From IMG/VR virus record IMGVR_UViG_3300009974_000001: a DNA stretch of 22,420 nt; one strand, given 5' to 3'. The notes under the pieces are model-generated. The model made no database searches, was not told the DNA's origin, and worked only from the letters and a program-made list of their open reading frames with translations. Position numbers and translations under genes: made by a program. Shown in pieces: positions 1,200 to 21,773 of this stretch. Position 1 is the first letter of the stretch. Each line of letters opens with the position of its first letter. This DNA comes from a virus.

Positions 1200-2466
1200 T
1201 CTGGGTGCCCTTCTGAACAAGGCTCCTGTGCCATACGTACAGAGATCTGCGGCATCTGAGTGGTTTCAGAATCCCCAGAACGCCAAGTCTCTTACCAACA
1301 TGGAGGCATATGGTTCTGTAGGTACACTGTTTGCCATCGTCAACCGTCTGGCCAACGATACTTCAGCCGTATGCTGGAAGCTGTACCAGACACAGAAGGA
1401 CACACGCAGACGCTATGCGCACACAGGTATGGATGACCGTAAGGAAGTCATTGACCATATGGCGCTGAAGCTTCTTACCAAGCCCAATCCTTTTATGACC
1501 ACGCAGCTATTCATTGAGATTACACAGCAGCACATTGATCTGACTGGTGAATCTTTCTGGGCTGTAGTAAGTGAGTATGGAATTCCGTACGAACTGTGGC
1601 CTCTTCGTCCAGACAGAATGACTATTGTCTGTGATGCGGAGAACTACCTTACTGGATATGTGTATACAACTCCAGAGGGACGTAAGATTCCCATGGAGAA
1701 GGAACAGATTATCCATCTGAAGATGCCGTCTCCTGTGGATATCTACAGAGGTGCTTCACCAGTATCTGCCATTCTTCCTGATCTTGAATCGTCTCGTCTT
1801 TCATCTGAATGGAATCGTAACTTCTTCAAGAACTCCGCCGTTCCTGGTGGTGTGATTCAGGTAGAAGGAAGACTTTCTGACGCTGCCTTCTATGAGATGA
1901 TGCTTCGTTGGCAGGAGCAGCACAAGGGTGTGGCTAACGCACATCGTGCGGCTGTACTGGATAATGGTGGTAAGTGGATTCCTACTGCTATGACAATGCG
2001 CGATATGCAGTTCGCTGAATTGCGTGATGTCTCTTCTCAGGTAATCCGTGAAGCATTCGGCTTCCCCAAGTTCAAGCTTGGTGATGTGACTGATGTAAAC
2101 CGTGCCAATGCTGATGCCTCTGAGCGTATGTATGCACGATCACTATTGAAGCCAAGACTTGAGAGAATCAAGCAGGCGCTCAACACACAGCTTCTTCCTC
2201 TGTTCGGCTCATCTGGTTCTGGAATTGAATTCGACTATGATTCTCCTGAGCCCGATGACGAAGAGCTGGAGATGCAAGAGCGTCTGAACAAGGCACAGGC
2301 TGCGAAGACTCTTGTGGACGCCGGATATGATCCTGCGTCTATTCTTGAGGTGGTAGGACTACCGCCAATGGAACACAGAACAGAGAAGTCTCAGCCTATT
2401 GTTCCCCCTATTACTACTCCTGGAGAGGAGACGCCAAATGAAGACGTGGTACCGCCTGGAGAATAA
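1183..2466 (+). CDS. Portal protein (HK97-family type), 427 aa from the ATG at 1183
   Basis: Size and position fit a gene between terL and the protease. Portal-like segments are GESFWAVV and REAFGFPKFKLGD, with an acidic C-terminal tail. GGAG lies 6 nt before ATG 1183; the ORF track starts at 1171. Confidence 0.85.
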   Translation: MSILANLGALLNKAPVPYVQRSAASEWFQNPQNAKSLTNMEAYGSVGTLFAIVNRLANDTSAVCWKLYQTQKDTRRRYAHTGMDDRKEVIDHMALKLLTKPNPFMTTQLFIEITQQHIDLTGESFWAVVSEYGIPYELWPLRPDRMTIVCDAENYLTGYVYTTPEGRKIPMEKEQIIHLKMPSPVDIYRGASPVSAILPDLESSRLSSEWNRNFFKNSAVPGGVIQVEGRLSDAAFYEMMLRWQEQHKGVANAHRAAVLDNGGKWIPTAMTMRDMQFAELRDVSSQVIREAFGFPKFKLGDVTDVNRANADASERMYARSLLKPRLERIKQALNTQLLPLFGSSGSGIEFDYDSPEPDDEELEMQERLNKAQAAKTLVDAGYDPASILEVVGLPPMEHRTEKSQPIVPPITTPGEETPNEDVVPPGE

Positions 2467-3334
2467 GGCTAATTCCACACCTACTCTTTTCCTGTATGAT
2501 GAAATCGGTGGATTCGGAATCAGCGCATCTGATTTCATGACTGATCTTATGGCCGTGGAAGGCGACGCCATTGATGTACATATCTCCTCTCTTGGTGGAG
2601 AAGTATTCCAGGGCTTCGCTATCTATCAGGCATTGAAGGATCACCCTGCTATGGTGAACGTCTATGTGGATTCCATTGCGGCCTCTATTGCTTCTGTCAT
2701 TGCTATGGCAGGCGACAAGGTAGTCATGGGCAAGAATTCACAGATGATGATTCATGATGGTCATGTGACGATGCAGGGCAATGCTGCGGATCTTACCCGT
2801 ATGATCGACCAGTTGAACCGTGCCTCTGACAATATCGCCTCTGTCTATGCAGAGCGTACTGGTGGAGACATCGCTGAATGGCGTAATGCCATGAAGGACG
2901 AGACATGGTTCAATGCTGAGGAAGCTGTTGCTGCTGGTCTTGCTGACGAGGTTTCTCAGTCATCCAAGAAGGTACGCAATGTGGCTGATCTACAGATCTT
3001 CAACTATGCAGGTCGTCAGTTCGCTCCTGCTCCTACTATTCTGGGGCAGAAGAGTACTGAGAAGAAGGAACCATATGGAGATGTGGAATACGCAGATCCT
3101 GGTTACCAGAACGACGGTAAGAAGAGATACCCGATTGACACCGAAGAGCACATTCGTGCCGCTTGGAGTTACATCAATCAATCAGATAATGCTAAACTGT
3201 ATACAGCAGAACAACTTAGCAATATCAAAAGCCGTATCAAGACAGCGGCTAAGAAGTTCGGGATTCAGATCTCGGACGCTATCGACACTGAATCCCTAAT
3301 CAAGGCTATTAAGGAAGGACTAAGTCATGGCTAA
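2438..3334 (+). CDS. ClpP-like (S14) prohead maturation protease with an extra conserved C-terminal domain
   Basis: ClpP-type serine context DSIAASIASVIAMAGD and histidine context QMMIHDG. SD ggagaggag precedes ATG 2438. The C-terminus carries YADPGYQNDGKKRYPIDTEEHIRAAWSYI. Confidence 0.85.
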   Translation: MKTWYRLENKANSTPTLFLYDEIGGFGISASDFMTDLMAVEGDAIDVHISSLGGEVFQGFAIYQALKDHPAMVNVYVDSIAASIASVIAMAGDKVVMGKNSQMMIHDGHVTMQGNAADLTRMIDQLNRASDNIASVYAERTGGDIAEWRNAMKDETWFNAEEAVAAGLADEVSQSSKKVRNVADLQIFNYAGRQFAPAPTILGQKSTEKKEPYGDVEYADPGYQNDGKKRYPIDTEEHIRAAWSYINQSDNAKLYTAEQLSNIKSRIKTAAKKFGIQISDAIDTESLIKAIKEGLSHG

Positions 3335-9480: not shown

Positions 9481-9512
9481 CTAGTTGTCCAGTCTTGGTG
9501 TATACTTGGACT

Positions 9513-9953
9513 ATGACTACTAAGACATGCACCAAGTGTGCCAAAGAAAAGCCAATCAACCAGTTCAGTTTGGCAAGACAGGGTAAGCGTGGCCCGGTAT
9601 ACAGAAGCAACTGCAAAGTATGCCAGGCCACGGATGCCCGTAAATGGTTCCACAACAACAAGGAACGCAATCGCGACAATAAGTTCCGTCATAAGTTGCA
9701 AGAAACTTATGGAATGACCGTGGAGGACTACTACGTTCTTCACGACCAACAGAATGGAGTGTGTGCTATCTGTGGAAATGAAGAAGCTAGCAAGCACGGC
9801 AAAACGGGAACAACATTCCGACTAGCGGTAGACCACTGTCACACGACAGGTAAGGTCCGAGGTCTACTCTGCCAAAACTGTAATCGAGCCATCGGACTGC
9901 TTGGAGATAACGCAAATAGGCTGCGTACAGCAGCTTCTTACTTGGAAAGGTAA
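9513..9953 (+). CDS. Recombination endonuclease VII family (HNH-superfamily) nuclease (146 aa from ATG 9513)
   Basis: CAICGNEE...LAVDHCHTTGKVRGLLCQNCNRAIGLLGDN is the classic Endo VII core. The N-terminal module CTKCAKEKPINQF...CKVCQATDARKW resembles that of the 7837 HNH. The track start at 9495 is a TTG. Confidence 0.85.
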   Translation: MTTKTCTKCAKEKPINQFSLARQGKRGPVYRSNCKVCQATDARKWFHNNKERNRDNKFRHKLQETYGMTVEDYYVLHDQQNGVCAICGNEEASKHGKTGTTFRLAVDHCHTTGKVRGLLCQNCNRAIGLLGDNANRLRTAASYLER

Positions 9954-17706: not shown

Positions 17707-17748
17707 ACGAAGGACCCCGATCTCCGTAGTGGGAAAGGGGTCCTTCGT
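17707..17748 (+). terminator. Hairpin terminator ending the tail operon
   Basis: acgaaggacccc (17707-17718) pairs with ggggtccttcgt (17737-17748), a 12-bp stem. Confidence 0.65.
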
Positions 17749-17807
17749 CTAATCTGAGACTTAGCGTATAATTTACATGTACTTGCCAATTAGACTGGAA
17801 GGAGTTG

Positions 17808-18176: not shown

Positions 18177-18274
18177 ATGTGTTACTATCGTAGCTACTGG
18201 ACGCGGGGTTGACATGGATTCCCCGCCACCGGACAACAGAACTGCGGACATAGGACACCCGCACTCTACAAGAC

Positions 18275-18306
18275 GAAGACCCCTCGCCATAAGGTAAGGG
18301 GTCTTC
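18275..18306. terminator. Bidirectional terminator between the convergent + and - gene sets
   Basis: gaagacccct (18275-18284) pairs with aggggtcttc (18297-18306), followed by ttcgttc. Confidence 0.75.
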
Positions 18307-18312
18307 TTCGTT

Positions 18313-18952: not shown

Positions 18953-19084
18953 TTACTCTCCAGAAAAGATACGGTTATCGATGTCCTGGTCAAGATCATA
19001 TCCAAAGAGATGAGAATCGATATCGTCCCAGGTCTCGTTGTCATCATTGATCAGGAGGCTGTGGTAGAATTGAATCGAAGTCAT
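18953..19084 (-). CDS. 43-aa highly acidic microprotein
   Basis: Hand translation: MTSIQFYHSLLINDDNETWDDIDSHLFGYDLDQDIDNRIFSGE. SD AAGGAAA is upstream. Confidence 0.45.
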   Translation of the reverse strand: MTSIQFYHSLLINDDNETWDDIDSHLFGYDLDQDIDNRIFSGE

Positions 19085-19118
19085 AGTTTAGTTTCCTTAG
19101 CTGAATAGTAGTCTGTGT

Positions 19119-19150
19119 AAGAGGTCCCTAGTTCCCGCTAGGGACCTCTT
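19119..19150 (+). terminator. Hairpin whose U-tract lies on the + strand (tttgcgttt), inside the - strand operon
   Basis: gaggtcccta (19121-19130) pairs with tagggacctc (19139-19148), plus two A-T pairs. The - strand side is followed only by UUACACAG. Confidence 0.55.
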
Positions 19151-19155
19151 TGCGT

Positions 19156-19338
19156 TTAAAGCTCTACAGTGATGTTCGCTGTTTCCAGTTCCTTCAGAGA
19201 GTCGTACTGACTGAAGTAGTTCTCCAGAGCCATACGGATAAGATATCCTTCCGAACGGTCCAGATCACTTGATACTTCTTTCAGCTTGATACTCATCTCA
19301 GGATCAATGAGAAATGTCTTGGATACTGTGTAAGCCAT
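19156..19338 (-). CDS. Ribbon-helix-helix (CopG/Arc/MetJ-type) DNA-binding protein (60 aa)
   Basis: Beta-strand then two helices: KTFLIDPEMSIKLKEVSSDLDRSEGYLIRMALENYF. SD AAGGAG lies 5 nt upstream. Confidence 0.7.
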   Translation of the reverse strand: MAYTVSKTFLIDPEMSIKLKEVSSDLDRSEGYLIRMALENYFSQYDSLKELETANITVEL

Positions 19339-19415
19339 CTTATCTCCTTATTTTGCTTGGCAAAAGCTTGGTAGTTAGTTATCTTATGAGATAGGTTTCT
19401 CTCTGTGTTAATACT

Positions 19416-19444
19416 AGTATAGCAGAGGAGATAAGATGTGTCAA
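19416..19444 (-). promoter_or_regulatory. Near-consensus sigma70-type promoter for the RHH operon: TTGACA, 17 nt, TATACT, with TGC as an extended -10
   Basis: The reverse complement of 19416-19444 reads ttgacaCATCTTATCTCCTCTGCtatact. Confidence 0.7.
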
Positions 19445-19449
19445 GCGAA

Positions 19450-19476
19450 GAACCTCACTTAGAAGGTGTGAGGTTC
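19450..19476 (-). terminator. Terminator after the rep-like gene
   Basis: gaacctcac (19450-19458) pairs with gtgaggttc (19468-19476). The - strand RNA continues UUCGCUU. Confidence 0.6.
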
Positions 19477-19491
19477 GTCACATAAGATCTT

Positions 19492-20640
19492 CTAGTAAGC
19501 GTGTGCTTGTACACGTAGTGCTGAGTACTTGGCCAAACGCTCTGATGACTGCGGAGATAGAGTAGGTGTTGTAGATGAGTTGGTGGTCTCAGATTCTGTA
19601 GAAGGGGAGTCACCGTACTTGGCTTCCCAGACCTTCATATCCTGTCTCCACTTACCCATGGCCTTGTTGAACGCTACCTCTGCGTTGTGAACTCTTCTCT
19701 CATGAGCAAAGTCATCGTGGTAAGGGTTACGGTTAGGAACCTCGTAGACAGGCTTCTGAGGCTTCTCTGGTACTGTCTGGACCTTCGCCCCAGGTTCTGC
19801 GCCAGAGGCGCTTAGAGGGGCGTCTACGACCTTTACAGGCTCCTTCTTACGCGGAGCGGCAGCTCTGCGAGGAGCCAGGGGATGAGGAGTACGTGTAATG
19901 TCTTTCGTTGTTACTGTTTCGTTATCAACGTCTACGTTCTTCTCACCAGAGGAAATGGTAGAAGGAGCCGCGTTAGCGGTGACTTCGTCTACCAGAGGAG
20001 AAATACCAATCTCTTCAATAACTTCTCTCTTAGTATCACCAGAGGAAACTAGTTCCTTACCAGGGAAGACCAGAGGAGACTTAGTCTCTACCAAGGCTCC
20101 CCCCTGGTTTTCCCCTGGTGAACTACTCATAACGGACATTTCCTTATTATTAGGTGAAATATTTACTGAACTATCTACTGAACTATTAGACCCTTCTACA
20201 GCAGGGGGGTAGTACCCTTCTACAGCAGGGGGGTAGTACCCTTCTACAGCAGGGGGGTTAGCTTCTGATGCAGGGTACTCTAGAGGAGTTGGTGCTGTGA
20301 CCCCTTCTACAGCAGGGGGGTTAGAAGATCTGTACTTCTCGGTGTTGACTTCAGCCTGCGGGAGTGCCATGATGGCTTCTGGAACGAGGAAGTAGCTGTT
20401 TCGCTTTCCTGGATTCTTCTGGACAGTCACCAGCCCTGGCAGGTAGGTATCGACTCCCTTGAAGTTCTTGGCGTTCTTGATTCCTCTGGTCTGGCATAGT
20501 CTTGCCACACCTGGGAAAGCTTCGTTGGTCTCGATGTTGCTTCTCATGATCAGCTCCACGAGAAGGATCTTGTCCTTGGCATCGAGAGTACTGATGTTCA
20601 CGACATTGATCATGTCGAACTTATTGGGCTTGTTGCTCAT
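19492..20640 (-). CDS. Rep-like or replisome-organizer-like protein: N-terminal winged HTH, PPAVEG repeats and a long low-complexity region (382 aa)
   Basis: The N-terminus LDAKDKILLVELIMRSN...EAFPGVARLCQTRGIKNAKNF...LVTVQK resembles HTH domains of plasmid and phage initiators (recall). SD AAGGAAA present. Confidence 0.55.
   Translation of the reverse strand: MSNKPNKFDMINVVNISTLDAKDKILLVELIMRSNIETNEAFPGVARLCQTRGIKNAKNFKGVDTYLPGLVTVQKNPGKRNSYFLVPEAIMALPQAEVNTEKYRSSNPPAVEGVTAPTPLEYPASEANPPAVEGYYPPAVEGYYPPAVEGSNSSVDSSVNISPNNKEMSVMSSSPGENQGGALVETKSPLVFPGKELVSSGDTKREVIEEIGISPLVDEVTANAAPSTISSGEKNVDVDNETVTTKDITRTPHPLAPRRAAAPRKKEPVKVVDAPLSASGAEPGAKVQTVPEKPQKPVYEVPNRNPYHDDFAHERRVHNAEVAFNKAMGKWRQDMKVWEAKYGDSPSTESETTNSSTTPTLSPQSSERLAKYSALRVQAHAY
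20121..20190. other. AT-rich tract inside the rep-like gene (20 G/C in 70 nt by hand count), candidate DNA-unwinding element
   Basis: aactactcataacggacatttccttattattaggtgaaatatttactgaactatctactgaactattaga. It includes tactgaactat twice (20164-20174 and 20176-20186). Confidence 0.4.
20191..20321. repeat. Four copies of the 20-bp repeat cccttctacagcaggggggt (three in tandem at 24-bp period, one 44 bp further on), iteron-like
   Basis: Copies are at 20191-20210, 20215-20234, 20239-20258 and 20302-20321. They encode the (Y)YPPAVEG / NPPAVEG peptide repeats on the - strand. Confidence 0.9.
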
Positions 20641-20648
20641 GGTATAAT
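20640..20648 (+). promoter_or_regulatory. Perfect extended -10 promoter TGGTATAAT on the + strand, antisense to the rep start region
   Basis: catGGTATAATttcctt: the TG overlaps the rep start codon complement, and the hexamer is at 20643-20648. Confidence 0.45.
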
Positions 20649-20654
20649 TTCCTT

Positions 20655-20697
20655 ATAGTAGTGGTGAAGGCGGTCTTCCTGGCGGGGGCCGCTTTTT
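20655..20697 (+). ncRNA. Candidate countertranscript of about 43 nt, complementary to the wHTH-rep intercistronic leader
   Basis: The predicted TSS is about 7 nt after the hexamer (A at 20655). The hairpin spans 20667-20695, with core pairs 20670-20678 to 20684-20692. It includes G-U pairs that exist only in the + strand RNA, and its 3' arm runs into the T-run at 20693-20697. Confidence 0.4.
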
Positions 20698-20920
20698 ACT
20701 TTTCCAGGGTCTCGTAGTTGAATCTCTTGGTCTGGGGAACCTCAGTAACAGTCACCCATCCATTCTTCTTCAGTACCTTTACATACGCGTTGATGGACTG
20801 CGTCGTAGTGTGCAGCTCATGTGCCAGAACGGCCTGTGAGTGGATTCCTGGATTCTCCTTCAGGTAGAAGTAGAGAACCTTTGCCCCGGGCTGGATCTTG
20901 GCGTTGTAGATGGTTTCCAT
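20696..20920 (-). CDS. Small winged-HTH transcriptional regulator (74 aa from ATG 20920)
   Basis: LYFYLKENPGIHSQAVLAHELHTTTQSINAYVKVLKKNGWVTV. SD GGAGA lies 5 nt upstream of ATG 20920. Confidence 0.65.
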   Translation of the reverse strand: METIYNAKIQPGAKVLYFYLKENPGIHSQAVLAHELHTTTQSINAYVKVLKKNGWVTVTEVPQTKRFNYETLEK

Positions 20921-20958
20921 GGTTATCTCCATTGGTAGTTTTTCTCGCTTACATTAAT

Positions 20959-20967
20959 AGTATAGCA
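20959..20967 (-). promoter_or_regulatory. Extended -10 TGCTATACT for the wHTH-rep operon
   Basis: The reverse complement of agtatagca is the same 9-mer as in the RHH promoter. It lies about 32 nt upstream of ATG 20920. Confidence 0.5.
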
Positions 20968-20991
20968 CAGACTACTATCGTAAGTTTTGAT

Positions 20992-21041
20992 AGTATAGAC
21001 TCTAATCCATGTGATGTTTGTCACATACAACAGACTATACT
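20992..21041. promoter_or_regulatory. Dyad-symmetric control region: back-to-back TATACT boxes flanking the palindrome atgtga-N6-tcacat
   Basis: agtatagact (20992-21001) and agactatact (21032-21041) form a 9/10 inverted repeat. The central palindrome arms are 21009-21014 and 21021-21026. Confidence 0.5.
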
Positions 21042-21113
21042 CATAGTCCTGTATACTGTACTCATAGCCAGGGGTCTCCTAGCTATCTGTGTTAGGCGCT
21101 TCGCGCCGTTAGG

Positions 21114-21157
21114 GAAAGCCTCTTAGTCACTTACCTCATTCCGACTAAGAGGCTTTT
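21114..21157. terminator. Strong hairpin with A-tract and T-tract flanks, between the control region and the packaging genes
   Basis: gaaagcctcttagtc (21114-21128) pairs with gactaagaggctttt (21143-21157), with a 14-nt loop. Confidence 0.6.
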
Positions 21158-21226
21158 CCATTACCACCATTCATCTTAGATAGTGTATACTGATACTAAC
21201 ACAGAAACCAAACCAAGGAGACTACA

Positions 21227-21346
21227 ATGGCTATCAAGAAGATCGACATTCTCATGGACCAGGCACTAAAGACCCCTGAAGGACGAAAGGTCATTGCTGA
21301 GAAGCTTAGAAAGGAATTGCGTAGAAATGGGACAAACGTCAGATAA
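21227..21346 (+). CDS. 39-aa basic microprotein, first ORF of the late operon
   Basis: SD aaggaga lies 6 nt upstream. Hand translation: MAIKKIDILMDQALKTPEGRKVIAEKLRKELRRNGTNVR. It overlaps the terS start by 20 nt. Confidence 0.45.
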   Translation: MAIKKIDILMDQALKTPEGRKVIAEKLRKELRRNGTNVR

Positions 21347-21773
21347 GTCAACAGATGCTGACAGCTCTGCTATCAATCCACGCAGACCTTTGTCAAACCC
21401 GTGGACTCGGGGACAGCTAATTGCTGATCTCGCCACTGGTGAGTACACACAGACATTCCTGGCATCCAAGTATGGAGTAACACCTGGAGCGATTAGTCAG
21501 TTCAATAAGCGATACTCTCCTCAAGTTGAAGAACGTAGAGAACGTCTGTTGGATGAATATCAGGATCTGTGGATCGCTACCAAGTACAACCGTTTGGCAG
21601 CCCTTCAGACACTTGCTGAGGAGCTATCGGATGACGAGACTACTCCACGTACCGCAGAGGTGATTGATCGTCTCCTGCGTTCAGCAGCAGAAGAGTTGGG
21701 AGATCTGGAGACCAAGATCTCTGTAGACGTAGCTGAGTATCGCATTACAGGAATTGATCTAGACAAACTATAG
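21327..21773 (+). CDS. Small terminase subunit (148 aa from the first ATG)
   Basis: It lies upstream of terL. The N-terminal HTH-like segment is WTRGQLIADLATGEYTQTFLASKYGVTPGAISQFNKR, followed by a helical region. The track start at 21294 is a TTG. Confidence 0.65.
   Translation: MGQTSDKSTDADSSAINPRRPLSNPWTRGQLIADLATGEYTQTFLASKYGVTPGAISQFNKRYSPQVEERRERLLDEYQDLWIATKYNRLAALQTLAEELSDDETTPRTAEVIDRLLRSAAEELGDLETKISVDVAEYRITGIDLDKL

Follow-up and report, generated by a model that had tools for sequence, protein, structure and literature searches.

The short gap between a small winged-helix (wHTH) regulator gene and a rep-like gene in a 22-kb tailed phage raised the question of whether the gap is itself a gene, encoding an antisense RNA directed against the initiator. 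That an initiator gene can be controlled by an antisense RNA is textbook plasmid biology. For phages, the main known case, to our knowledge, is lambda oop, the accepted target of which is cII and not O. In our study, the locus was examined in its window, the whole analysed stretch of 22,420 nt, which was found to be a complete circular genome (the TerL ORF spans the junction). We found that the gap may well be a conserved cis-antisense RNA gene limiting initiator expression, a reading drawn from sequence comparison to which we give a probability of roughly 0.55.

The wHTH-initiator operon and its genome

The wHTH and rep-like ORFs were separated by 55 nt, and the operon contained the following elements.

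21010-21025, unstranded: exact palindrome TGTGA-N6-TCACA, candidate operator or activator site, 58 nt upstream of the operon -10
20959-20967, - strand: extended -10 TGCTATACT, likely promoter of the wHTH-initiator operon (sequence, conservation)
20696-20932, - strand: small winged-helix protein gene, 78 aa, MarR_2/HTH_24 (family match), first gene of the operon
20648-20654, - strand: initiator SD, AAGGAAA (sequence), following directly, on the mRNA, the stretch to which the predicted RNA is complementary
19492-20640, - strand: putative replication initiator, 382 aa, the rep-like ORF (homologues, slot alleles, predicted structure)

The TGCTATACT element was conserved in the related lineages L001, L002, and L004, where it precedes the wHTH start by 35-55 nt. 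A second copy of TGTGA-N6-TCACA was found at 19467-19482, with identical spacing to the next TGCTATACT promoter. The original prediction described the upstream protein as a wHTH repressor; the winged-helix family was borne out, whereas the repressor role was left unsupported, the small upstream wHTH gene differing between relatives, in which other small wHTH genes occupy this position. A paralogous origin of the wHTH protein from the N-terminal domain of Rep was considered and dropped, no similarity being seen on comparison.

No integrase or partition (ParA/ParB) gene was found in the complete 22.4-kb genome, nor any TA or other maintenance gene, several small ORFs being still unannotated. The lack of an integrase had been pointed out before, and was seen again in the circular genome; the episomal or phage-plasmid maintenance suggested along with it is unsupported, neither par genes nor further maintenance functions having been detected. 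The actinophage prophages so far described as extrachromosomal carry parABS (PMC7157519). The carriers of the cassette are a family of very small (~22 kb) uncultured siphoviruses, the hosts of which are probably actinobacteria. The region, Rep, and the N-terminal domain of Rep had no match among GenBank phages and PLSDB plasmids (blastn, tblastn); no annotated relative could be used for comparison.

The putative initiator gene and its candidate intragenic origin

The Rep of the window gave no match in Pfam and PHROG scans, RCR Rep and Phage_rep_O included, and 8 of 12 homologous N-terminal domains matched PF13730 HTH_36. The AF2 model contained an N-terminal winged helix (residues 1-100), followed by a disordered linker (~110-290) and C-terminal helices. 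Foldseek retrieved only generic winged-helix folds for this model (E > 0.07), and the fold therefore does not prove an initiator; a PDB profile search returned only a spurious ribosomal-protein match (E 0.61). The same slot in relatives was occupied by 'replication initiation O-like' alleles. Two further elements were present inside the gene.

20191-20317, unstranded: iteron-like 16-bp palindrome CCCTTCTACAGCAGGG (sense strand CCCTGCTGTAGAAGGG), 4 copies, of the form CCCTKC-N4-GMAGGG
20138-20177, unstranded: AT-rich 40-mer, candidate unwinding element (GC 0.225, the AT-richest 40-mer in the initiator gene)

The four palindrome copies compare with 0.15 expected, and three of them were found at 24-nt spacing. 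All nine homologues examined contained 3-5 copies with synonymous positions fixed, and the palindromes were encoded as a P-A/S-V-E-G peptide repeat. The AT-rich stretch follows directly after the palindromes, an arrangement repeated in 9 of 9 homologues, and both elements sit 320-500 nt inside the gene. From HTH_36 in the homologues, the O-like slot alleles, and the intragenic iterons with their AT-rich stretch, we infer that Rep is a replication initiator. The modelled protein is consistent with a lambda-O-like layout, namely an N-terminal DNA-binding domain, a linker encoding the repeats and the AT-rich stretch, and a C-terminal domain.

The predicted antisense promoter

The features on which the original prediction was built were all present, namely TGGTATAAT, the SD, the T5 run, the 55-nt gap, and the hairpin, which was found to be a 13-bp structure at 20666-20696. 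The promoter candidate on the opposite strand was as follows.

20640-20648, + strand: extended -10 TGGTATAAT of the predicted antisense RNA (sequence)

The first T of TGGTATAAT is the complement of the A in the rep ATG (start codon 20638-20640), and the element also covers the last base of the rep SD. It is an extended -10 of the class (TGCTATACT) also seen in the early sense promoters of the phage family, and no -35 element was found at the antisense -10. The promoter and terminator rules used here are assumed ones and may not be those of the host. In the genome TGNTATAAT occurred once against 0.45 expected, and at least one occurrence was seen in 36 of 100 shuffles; the promoter match within the single window is at chance level, as had been stated from the beginning.

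The predicted RNA and its terminator hairpin

Downstream of the -10, the + strand contained the following elements.

20655-20697, + strand: predicted antisense RNA of ~43 nt (folding; start placed 7 nt after the -10)
20666-20696, + strand: strand-specific intrinsic-terminator hairpin (folding, terminator scan, covariation)

The predicted RNA contained an unstructured 5' tail of 11-12 nt (AUAGUAGUGGU...), followed by the terminator hairpin and U5. The 13-bp stem (20666-20678 with 20684-20696) contained 5 G-U and 6 G-C pairs and enclosed the loop CUGGC, and the T5 run (20693-20697) overlapped the wHTH stop codon (20696-20698). The predicted RNA was fully complementary to the wHTH-initiator intercistronic leader up to the base adjoining the SD; the SD and the start codon themselves were not covered. 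Its overlap with the upstream ORF was 2-3 nt, the stop codon only, in the window and in the relatives.

The proposal that the terminator is built for one strand was upheld by folding of both strands: the + strand folded at -17.5 kcal/mol (z -2.4, equalled in 3 of 200 shuffles), and the - strand at just -8.6 kcal/mol, with a broken stem of 4-5 bp and without a U-tract. G/U-rich strands generally fold better, and some structure signal was found on the sense strand too (z -1.1 to -3.3). A GC-rich stem-loop with a U-tract directly after it was present on the + strand only and was kept in relatives. In a terminator scan, the hairpin was the longest terminator-like site of the genome (13 pairs); terminator-like matches are also frequent in shuffled sequence, at 3.0 per 4.9 kb. 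Scanned against Rfam 15 (E up to 5), 19000-21400 yielded no RNA family, only two chance miRNA matches inside repeats. The 5'-tail motif (sense CAACUACUA) was dropped as an RNA-specific signal: similar A/C-rich 'AACUAC' leaders were found before other phage genes, and the motif is therefore not counted as evidence.

Comparison across lineages

Scanning viral, metagenome, and genome contigs with the Rep alignment contributed just one near-identical contig, plus some short, distant homologues; the useful extra lineages were obtained via wHTH homologues. The lineages compared (L001-L004, L025, L026, L027, L029, L030, and L031) represent every relative sharing this gene order. In front of the initiator slot, these 10 further lineages contained an antisense -10 together with a hairpin and T-run on the antisense strand, weakly so in L031. 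The -10 TGGTATAAT was identical in L001, L003, L025, L026, L027, L029, and L030. L002 contained TGATATACT, with the N position and hexamer position 5 as the sole differences, L004 contained AGGTATAAT, without the TG extension, and the -10 of L031 was weak (TGGTACCCT). GGTATAAT was retained in L004 although it lies 33 nt within the ORF there. The T-run over the upstream stop codon was retained across lineages. A loss of TGGTATAAT and the T-run in relatives keeping the arrangement, which would have spoken against the prediction, was looked for and not seen.

The cassette was found before at least three different initiator alleles. The initiator proteins of relatives were 41-65% identical or belonged to other families; in L029, L030, and L031 the downstream gene was a different HTH_36 / O-like initiator allele with the cassette retained, and in L027 a different, inserted wHTH gene was present upstream with the cassette still adjoining the initiator gene. 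All lineages were predicted to have a free 5' tail and a single terminal hairpin, and the predicted RNA, ~45-100 nt in relatives, always spanned the whole leader. The stems fell into at least three unrelated sequences, the GCGGTC type, the GAAGCCC type (L002), and the GATAGCCC type (L029/L030).

A functionless co-occurrence of a -10-like motif and a hairpin would agree with the 0.45 occurrences of TGNTATAAT expected per genome and with the terminator-like matches common in shuffles. The match in a single window is at chance level, but its recurrence in 10 lineages is above chance. Both elements recurred jointly, with order and strand unchanged, in ~10 diverged lineages, the stem sequences of which differ and contain compensatory changes; with Rep identities as low as those above, the relatives are not near-identical assemblies. 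We consider coincidence extremely improbable.

The SD-spacer-ATG cassette AAGGAAATTATACCATG, inside which the antisense -10 lies, was highly conserved among relatives, and this conservation could instead reflect translation or a recombination junction between modules. On the latter footing the hairpin and T-run would be an insulating terminator against + strand transcription through the early genes (e.g., late-operon read-through around the circular genome, spurious starts within rep), with TGGTATAAT a side effect of the module junction. Such an insulator is in keeping with AAGGAAATTATACCATGAG, which is nearly identical before unrelated initiator alleles as for a recombination junction, with the chance-level -10 count in a single genome, and with a weak promoter-like site on the + strand inside rep (20345-20373). 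However, the late operon has its own hairpins at the convergent junction (17707-17748 and ~18273-18308), for which reason a backstop terminator for that operon was set aside; a fixed location in this gap in every lineage is not expected of an insulator, the cassette was altered in L002 and L004 with the -10 kept, and SD-ATG spacer sequence is normally not conserved for translation. An insulator is thus unlikely in our judgement.

The hairpin might also act in the sense mRNA, as a 3' stabiliser or processing site of the wHTH cistron or as an attenuator without a U-tract, such as has been reported in actinobacteria, setting the wHTH:initiator ratio without an antisense RNA. In the same operon, a second intercistronic hairpin at 19119-19150, after a stop codon, was stable on both strands (-31 and -24 kcal/mol); the rep leaders of the distant Rep homologues L010, L022, and L024 contained sense-oriented hairpins with U-runs, and the sense-strand z-scores were mildly negative. 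Against such a role, the sense stem is broken by conserved C-A mismatches. In the alignment A7, 94.8% of cells were paired on the antisense strand (54-70% in slid controls); G-U pairs made up 30% of cells, so that the sense strand would pair in only 64.3%, and the U-G pairs at columns 44 and 46 were nearly invariant. The sense MFE was about half of the antisense MFE in L001-L004 and L025-L027, with a smaller difference in L029/L030 and a reversed asymmetry in L031; examples from relatives (antisense/sense) are -20.8/-10.4, -28.2/-16.4, -27.0/-9.9, and -21.7/-11.7. The sense-strand A-run before the hairpin, present in every lineage, is the antisense U-tract; a sense terminator would need it on the other side of the hairpin. 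A sense element is accordingly very unlikely.

The conservation and stem covariation that the original prediction had asked to be checked in related contigs were found: the promoter-plus-terminator unit was kept, and double changes were seen in 7 pairs, compared with 1.7 in shuffles (0 of 500), a statistic that is indicative only because of the kinship of the lineages, the 9-11 sequences, and the fitting of A7 to the model structure. A7 is a realignment to a covariance model built for the purpose and leans towards the model structure; the MAFFT alignments of the gap region (A2, A4, and A5) were out of structural register for L003 and L002.

Proposed mechanism and significance

In the antisense reading, the extended -10 on the initiator start codon, independent of a -35 element, would fire away from the initiator gene, and transcription would end ~43 nt later at the hairpin and U5, functional on that strand only. 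The RNA would be made by every genome copy and would use its 5' tail for pairing with the leader. The resulting duplex, adjoining the SD, may block 30S loading, be cut by a double-strand RNase, or both, whereby initiator synthesis would be uncoupled from that of the wHTH protein and lowered relative to it. Sense transcription may in addition be disturbed by polymerase sitting on the antisense promoter, which covers the SD and ATG. Taken together, these steps would brake, in a dose-dependent manner, an initiator with the origin inside its own gene.

Interference by the antisense promoter can alternatively be taken as the whole function. The promoter, rather than the RNA, would then matter, a pO-like convergent promoter damping sense transcription into the intragenic origin by collision or occupancy and so tuning origin activation, with the RNA a by-product kept short by the terminator. 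Polymerase on a -10 over the SD and ATG would occupy the translation and transcription entry region of the initiator, the origin-like elements, iterons and an AT-rich stretch, are found 320-500 nt further into the gene, and in lambda pO activity lowers pR transcription and pO loss impairs replication (PMC3985674). The 5' tail and single hairpin were conserved, however, and the length varied from 43 to 100 nt yet the whole leader was spanned, which suggests that the RNA itself is under selection. We regard a promoter-only function as rather unlikely; RNA pairing and promoter interference are compatible and not exclusive mechanisms.

A wider proposal appears improbable to us, in which the wHTH protein, the antisense RNA, and the iteron-type initiator with the origin inside its gene would form a complete, portable copy-number controller of plasmid type, the integrase-less actinophage would exist as a low-copy episome or in a carrier state without a partition system, and the cassette would be the junction swapped between unrelated initiator alleles with the RNA brake kept.

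The antisense reading matters for a non-homologous RNA cassette conserved directly before the initiator gene across the whole phage family, through exchanges of the initiator allele. If true, it would represent a new cis-antisense RNA family and a reinvention of dose-dependent control of initiator synthesis in virulent-looking phages, in a compact, testable system of ~300 bp for how phages limit or time replication initiation. The study also flags a new initiator family with palindromic iterons within the coding of the P-A/S-V-E-G repeat.

Comparison with known systems

The original prediction compared the locus with copG/RNAII/repB of pMV158. RNAII of pMV158 is an intergenic countertranscript of 48 nt, in which a 5' single-stranded tail is followed by one rho-independent terminator hairpin, and is complementary to the mRNA immediately upstream of the initiator translation signals, not to the signals themselves (PMC4485353). 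The phage likewise has a gene for a small DNA-binding protein and an initiator gene in one operon, and the tail, the terminator hairpin, and the position before the SD of the predicted RNA are like those of RNAII. The match thus held for RNA architecture and position and failed for homology, with no RCR initiator and no RHH CopG: where pMV158 has an HUH rolling-circle RepB, the phage has a putative initiator of the winged-helix HTH_36 type, with iterons and a lambda-O-like intragenic origin; in place of a ribbon-helix-helix CopG, its upstream protein is a MarR-like wHTH; and the replicon is a 22-kb tailed phage.

Copy number in theta plasmids is sensed by an unstable antisense RNA that is produced constitutively and directed at the rep leader (PMC4485353, PMC5717011). 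R1 CopB/CopA and pIP501 CopR/RNAIII share with the phage a small protein gene upstream of rep and an antisense RNA to the rep leader, in the phage a predicted one. The R1 and pIP501 RNAs are longer and contain multiple hairpins, and their action involves a leader peptide in R1 and transcription attenuation in pIP501. The 55-nt gap of the window contained no leader ORF and no sense attenuator.

In lambda, oop is transcribed from a promoter positioned where the initiator gene begins, and is terminated by a hairpin close to where the upstream gene ends (PMC5869508); pO also modulates replication, by interfering with pR (PMC3985674). The order of lambda cII-oop/pO-O, a small regulator gene, an antisense RNA, and an initiator with iterons and an AT-rich stretch inside its gene, recurs in the phage, where the antisense RNA is a predicted one. 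The phage also has a predicted promoter that overlaps the start of the initiator gene, points away from the candidate intragenic origin, and is followed by a hairpin terminator. By our analysis, the lambda unit, missed in the original prediction, fits the gene order better than copG/RNAII/repB. Lambda oop overlaps 52 nt of the cII coding sequence, whereas the predicted phage RNA overlaps only the upstream stop codon; the known target of oop is cII expression in the lysis-lysogeny decision, whereas the phage RNA would pair almost wholly with the initiator leader. The phage RNA further differs from oop in having no sequence or Rfam match to it, and no integrase was found in the phage. The unit is best read as functionally resembling both pMV158 RNAII and lambda oop/pO, and as homologous to neither.

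Layout of the wHTH-rep gap

The rep gene (382-aa ORF, a probable replication initiator) and the small MarR-like winged-helix gene directly upstream of it (wHTH) were found to be separated by 55 nt on the - strand, as read from the sequence of 19300-21200 and the ORF list. The original prediction had placed an antisense promoter and a terminator in this gap, and its layout was recovered from the sequence.

Features of the wHTH-rep gap
19492-20640, - strand: rep-like ORF, 382 aa (sequence reading and ORF list)
20640-20648, + strand: antisense extended -10, TGGTATAAT (sequence)
20648-20654, - strand: rep SD, AAGGAAA (sequence)
20666-20678 with 20684-20696, + strand: terminator hairpin, 13 bp, loop CUGGC, five G-U pairs (RNA folding)
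20693-20697, + strand: T5 run, overlapping the wHTH stop codon (20696-20698)
20696-20932, - strand: wHTH ORF, 78 aa (sequence reading and ORF list)

At its first T the antisense -10 is complementary to the A in the rep ATG, and at its last T to the final A of the rep SD. The predicted strand specificity of the hairpin was borne out by RNA folding, which gave -17.5 kcal/mol (z -2.4) on the + strand and only -8.6 kcal/mol on the - strand, where the stem was interrupted (4-5 bp) and the U-tract was absent. No terminator-like site in the genome was longer than this hairpin in a consensus scan. The promoter match by itself is not significant in the window, as had been conceded from the start, TGNTATAAT occurring once against 0.45 expected.

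Conservation of the antisense unit

Relatives were collected by protein searches (Rep homologues 41-65% identical, and wHTH homologues) and their contigs were then fetched. All lineages with a small wHTH gene followed by an initiator slot contained an antisense -10 at the initiator start, weak in one contig (L031), and an antisense hairpin whose T-run overlapped the upstream gene's stop codon. The L004 initiator in fact starts at an ATG further upstream (MSRRTAP..., cf. MARRTRP... in L003), which places the -10 within the ORF.

Antisense -10 and minimum free energies (antisense / sense strand) in the window and in contigs of relatives
Window: -19.3 / -9.0
L001: TGGTATAAT; -20.8 / -10.4
L002: TGATATACT, changed at the N of TGN and at hexamer position 5; -28.2 / -16.4
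L003: TGGTATAAT; -27.0 / -9.9
L004: AGGTATAAT, 33 nt inside the ORF; -21.7 / -11.7
L025: TGGTATAAT; -20.2 / -7.4
L026: TGGTATAAT; -21.5 / -10.2
L027: TGGTATAAT; -23.6 / -9.6
L029, L030: TGGTATAAT
L031: TGGTACCCT, weak -10 only

The stems were of type GCGGUC.../...GGCCGC, GAAGCCC/GGGCUUC (L002) or GAUAGCCC/GGGCUAUC (L029 and L030), and one C-G pair was changed to U-A in L003. Seven sequences were used to build a covariance model, and the nine sites that it recovered were all on the antisense strand. The sequences were few and share descent, and their alignment had been fitted to the model; on it, 94.8% of cells were paired (slid controls, 54-70%) and 7 of 16 pairs carried double changes, where shuffles gave 1.7 (as many in 0 of 500). 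G-U pairs made up 30% of cells, two mid-stem U-G pairs being nearly invariant, and for this reason the same helix would be paired in only 64.3% of cells on the sense strand. On that strand an A-run (TAAAAAG..., TAAAATAG..., TAAAAGCAAAATGG..., TAAAATAAAG...) was kept before the hairpin in all lineages; it serves no purpose in a sense terminator and constitutes the U-tract of an antisense one. The antisense elements are thus present, strand-specific and conserved, and the prediction of a conserved countertranscript unit ahead of the initiator gene has good in silico support. These comparative data exclude a chance co-occurrence of promoter and hairpin for practical purposes.

The hairpin might instead be an insulating terminator, with the -10 incidental in a conserved SD-spacer-ATG junction. 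This reading is weakened, as the late operon has hairpins of its own and the -10 is retained in L002 and L004 despite their changed cassettes. A sense-strand mRNA element was also considered, and such elements do exist in the group: a second intercistronic hairpin of the early operon is stable on both strands, and distant homologues carry sense-oriented leader hairpins with U-runs. Against it, the hairpin at 20666-20696 is systematically disabled on the sense strand. The second hairpin (19119-19150, within 19082-19159) follows a stop codon, is also present in L001, matches the covariance model weakly (23 bits) and folds at -31 and -24 kcal/mol on the two strands; no convincing antisense -10 was found with it. 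The distant 'short' initiator homologues L010, L022 and L024 adjoin integrase and Lsr2 genes in Streptomyces/Nocardioides-type elements and contain, close before the SD in the leader, a sense hairpin with a U-run after it (~2930-3000, ~800-860 and ~1660-1730, respectively), which suggests attenuation-type control in place of the antisense cassette. In L009 and L006 a hairpin with a U-run, in antisense orientation, was present ~170 nt upstream, together with a possible leader peptide ORF.

Cassette mobility and promoter class

In L027 an extra wHTH gene (93 aa) was present between the MarR-like gene and rep, and the hairpin and -10 were located between this extra gene and rep. In L029, L030 and L031 the downstream gene was a different initiator type. 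The cassette travels with the initiator slot. The window matches L001 exactly at the wHTH 3' end and over the initial part of the hairpin, whereas the initiators are only 65% identical; since the same SD-ATG cassette also stands ahead of the unrelated initiator alleles of L029-L031, the gap looks like a mosaic recombination junction.

The sense early promoters of the family were also of the extended -10 type (TGCTATACT; TGGTAAGAT in L003), found both 35-55 nt ahead of the wHTH gene and once more behind rep, and three of five TGNTAWAMT matches in the window fell in early intergenic regions. The antisense element therefore belongs to a promoter class in evident use by this phage group. Two exact TGTGA-N6-TCACA palindromes (CRP/GlxR-type consensus; 19467-19482 and 21010-21025), each 58 nt upstream of an TGCTATACT promoter of the - strand early genes, were conserved in L001-L003; the wHTH protein may use them as operators or, equally, they may be host CRP/GlxR-type sites. 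The wHTH protein had weak HTH_Crp_2 matches.

Probable initiator and candidate intragenic origin

The 382-aa protein had no match in Pfam or PHROG, nor among GenBank phages or PLSDB, and its Foldseek neighbours were generic winged-helix folds only. PF13730 (HTH_36) was matched by 8 of 12 homologous N-terminal domains. In the AF2 model a confidently predicted winged helix (residues 1-100) is joined to C-terminal helices by a disordered linker of ~180 residues, the same domain plan as in lambda O. The coding sequence of the linker contains a 16-bp palindrome in four copies (20191-20317; CCCTGCTGTAGAAGGG in the sense orientation; 0.15 expected), three of them spaced 24 nt apart. All nine homologues examined contained three to five copies of CCCT(T/G)C-N4-G(A/C)AGGG in the same place, with fixed third (synonymous) codon positions and variable centres, translating as a P-A/S-V-E-G peptide repeat; besides the window, this was seen in L001-L004, L006, L009, L010 and L014. 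Directly after the palindromes, each homologue had the 40-mer richest in AT within its gene (GC 0.20-0.33, in genes of ~50% GC), in rep at 20138-20177. Together these present the iteron plus unwinding-element plan of a candidate origin within the initiator gene, as lambda O also holds its origin within its own gene. The candidate origin was conserved out to Streptomyces prophage-like elements. Other alleles in the initiator slot (L029 and L031) matched 'replication initiation protein / O-like' PHROGs and HTH_36. From the HTH_36 homologues, the lambda-O-like model, the iterons, the AT-rich stretch and the O-like alleles, an initiator is the best inference, and this indirect evidence is reasonably strong. 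This putative initiator family, with its intragenic palindromic iterons, is previously undescribed.

In L027 one palindrome copy was present just upstream of a sense TGCTATACT promoter. The octamer CCAGAGGA occurred four times on the + strand inside rep (19946-20077), downstream of the AT-rich stretch in the sense direction, and once inverted near the rep 5' end (20482-20489); TCCTCTGG repeats were seen again in L001, L002, L004, L006 and L009.

Genome and likely host

The window was found to be a complete genome of 22,420 bp, circularly closed or circularly permuted, because a large-terminase ORF (482 aa) spans the junction 22420/1 once the end is joined to the start; the contig and the window are equal in length, and contigs of relatives measured 21.9-22.4 kb. 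It is that of a small siphovirus, with TerL, portal, ClpP-like protease, major head protein, adaptor, tape measure and a 1422-aa tail protein. The protease was fused to DUF6582, and an endonuclease VII gene was present within the structural module (coordinates given jointly for the two, 9495-9953 and 2399-3334). The last large + strand gene was followed by a strong hairpin devoid of a U-tract (17707-17748), TATAAT was present at 17767-17772 ahead of the 17805 ORF, and a two-way hairpin (~18273-18308) was found where the late and early transcription units converge. The portal shared 46% identity with its counterpart in Streptomyces phage Dagobah, and distant Rep homologues were found in Streptomyces and Nocardioides genomes, adjoining integrases and Lsr2 genes; on these grounds an actinobacterial host is likely. 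No integrase, partition or toxin-antitoxin genes were detected in the complete 22,420-bp genome. Episomal maintenance, which had been suggested, thus found no footing, as parABS is a feature of those extrachromosomal actinophage prophages that have been described (PMC7157519). A weak PhdYeFM antitoxin-like gene was present near the replication module in L004 (1785-1952) and L005.

Proposed mechanism and comparison with known systems

Beyond the presence, strand specificity and conservation of the elements, we infer every step. The predicted antisense RNA (~20655-20697, 43 nt) would have a single terminator hairpin behind a free 5' tail of 11-12 nt, and would be complementary to the intercistronic leader as far as the base adjoining the SD; in relatives it would measure ~45-100 nt and span the whole leader in each. 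By pairing next to the SD it could block ribosome loading and/or cause cleavage of the duplex, uncoupling the wHTH and initiator cistrons. Promoter interference may add to this, since a polymerase at the antisense promoter would cover the SD and ATG. The outcome would be a gene-dosage-dependent brake on initiator synthesis, proposed because the architecture and position resemble pMV158 RNAII and the gene order resembles lambda cII-oop/pO-O. An alternative in which the promoter does the work and yields the RNA as a by-product, as at lambda pO, fits the data and does not exclude the brake. The unit would represent a known kind of control, the countertranscript, in a new variant within the initiator family described here.

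RNAII of pMV158 is 48 nt long, with a 17-nt tail, critical for translation inhibition, and a terminator hairpin, and is complementary to the stretch directly upstream of the repB translation signals (PMC4485353). The phage RNA predicted here from sequence has the same architecture and position. However, pMV158 has an HUH Rep and an RHH protein, neither of which was found in the window, and membership of the pMV158 family is not supported. The countertranscript part of the original prediction is supported in silico, with promoter and hairpin kept among relatives, strand-specific, and the hairpin covarying. A CopG-like role of the wHTH protein was not upheld either; its fold family alone is established, and the small wHTH gene upstream comes from different families among relatives. 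In lambda, oop RNA ends at tO, overlaps cII by 52 nt and brings about cleavage of the cII-O mRNA by RNase III (PMC5869508), and pO tunes replication by lowering pR transcription (PMC3985674). The lambda cII-oop/pO-O region has the same gene order, an origin inside the initiator gene and an antisense promoter at the initiator 5' end. In silico, the antisense unit would work like pMV158 RNAII and lambda oop/pO, as a member of neither family.
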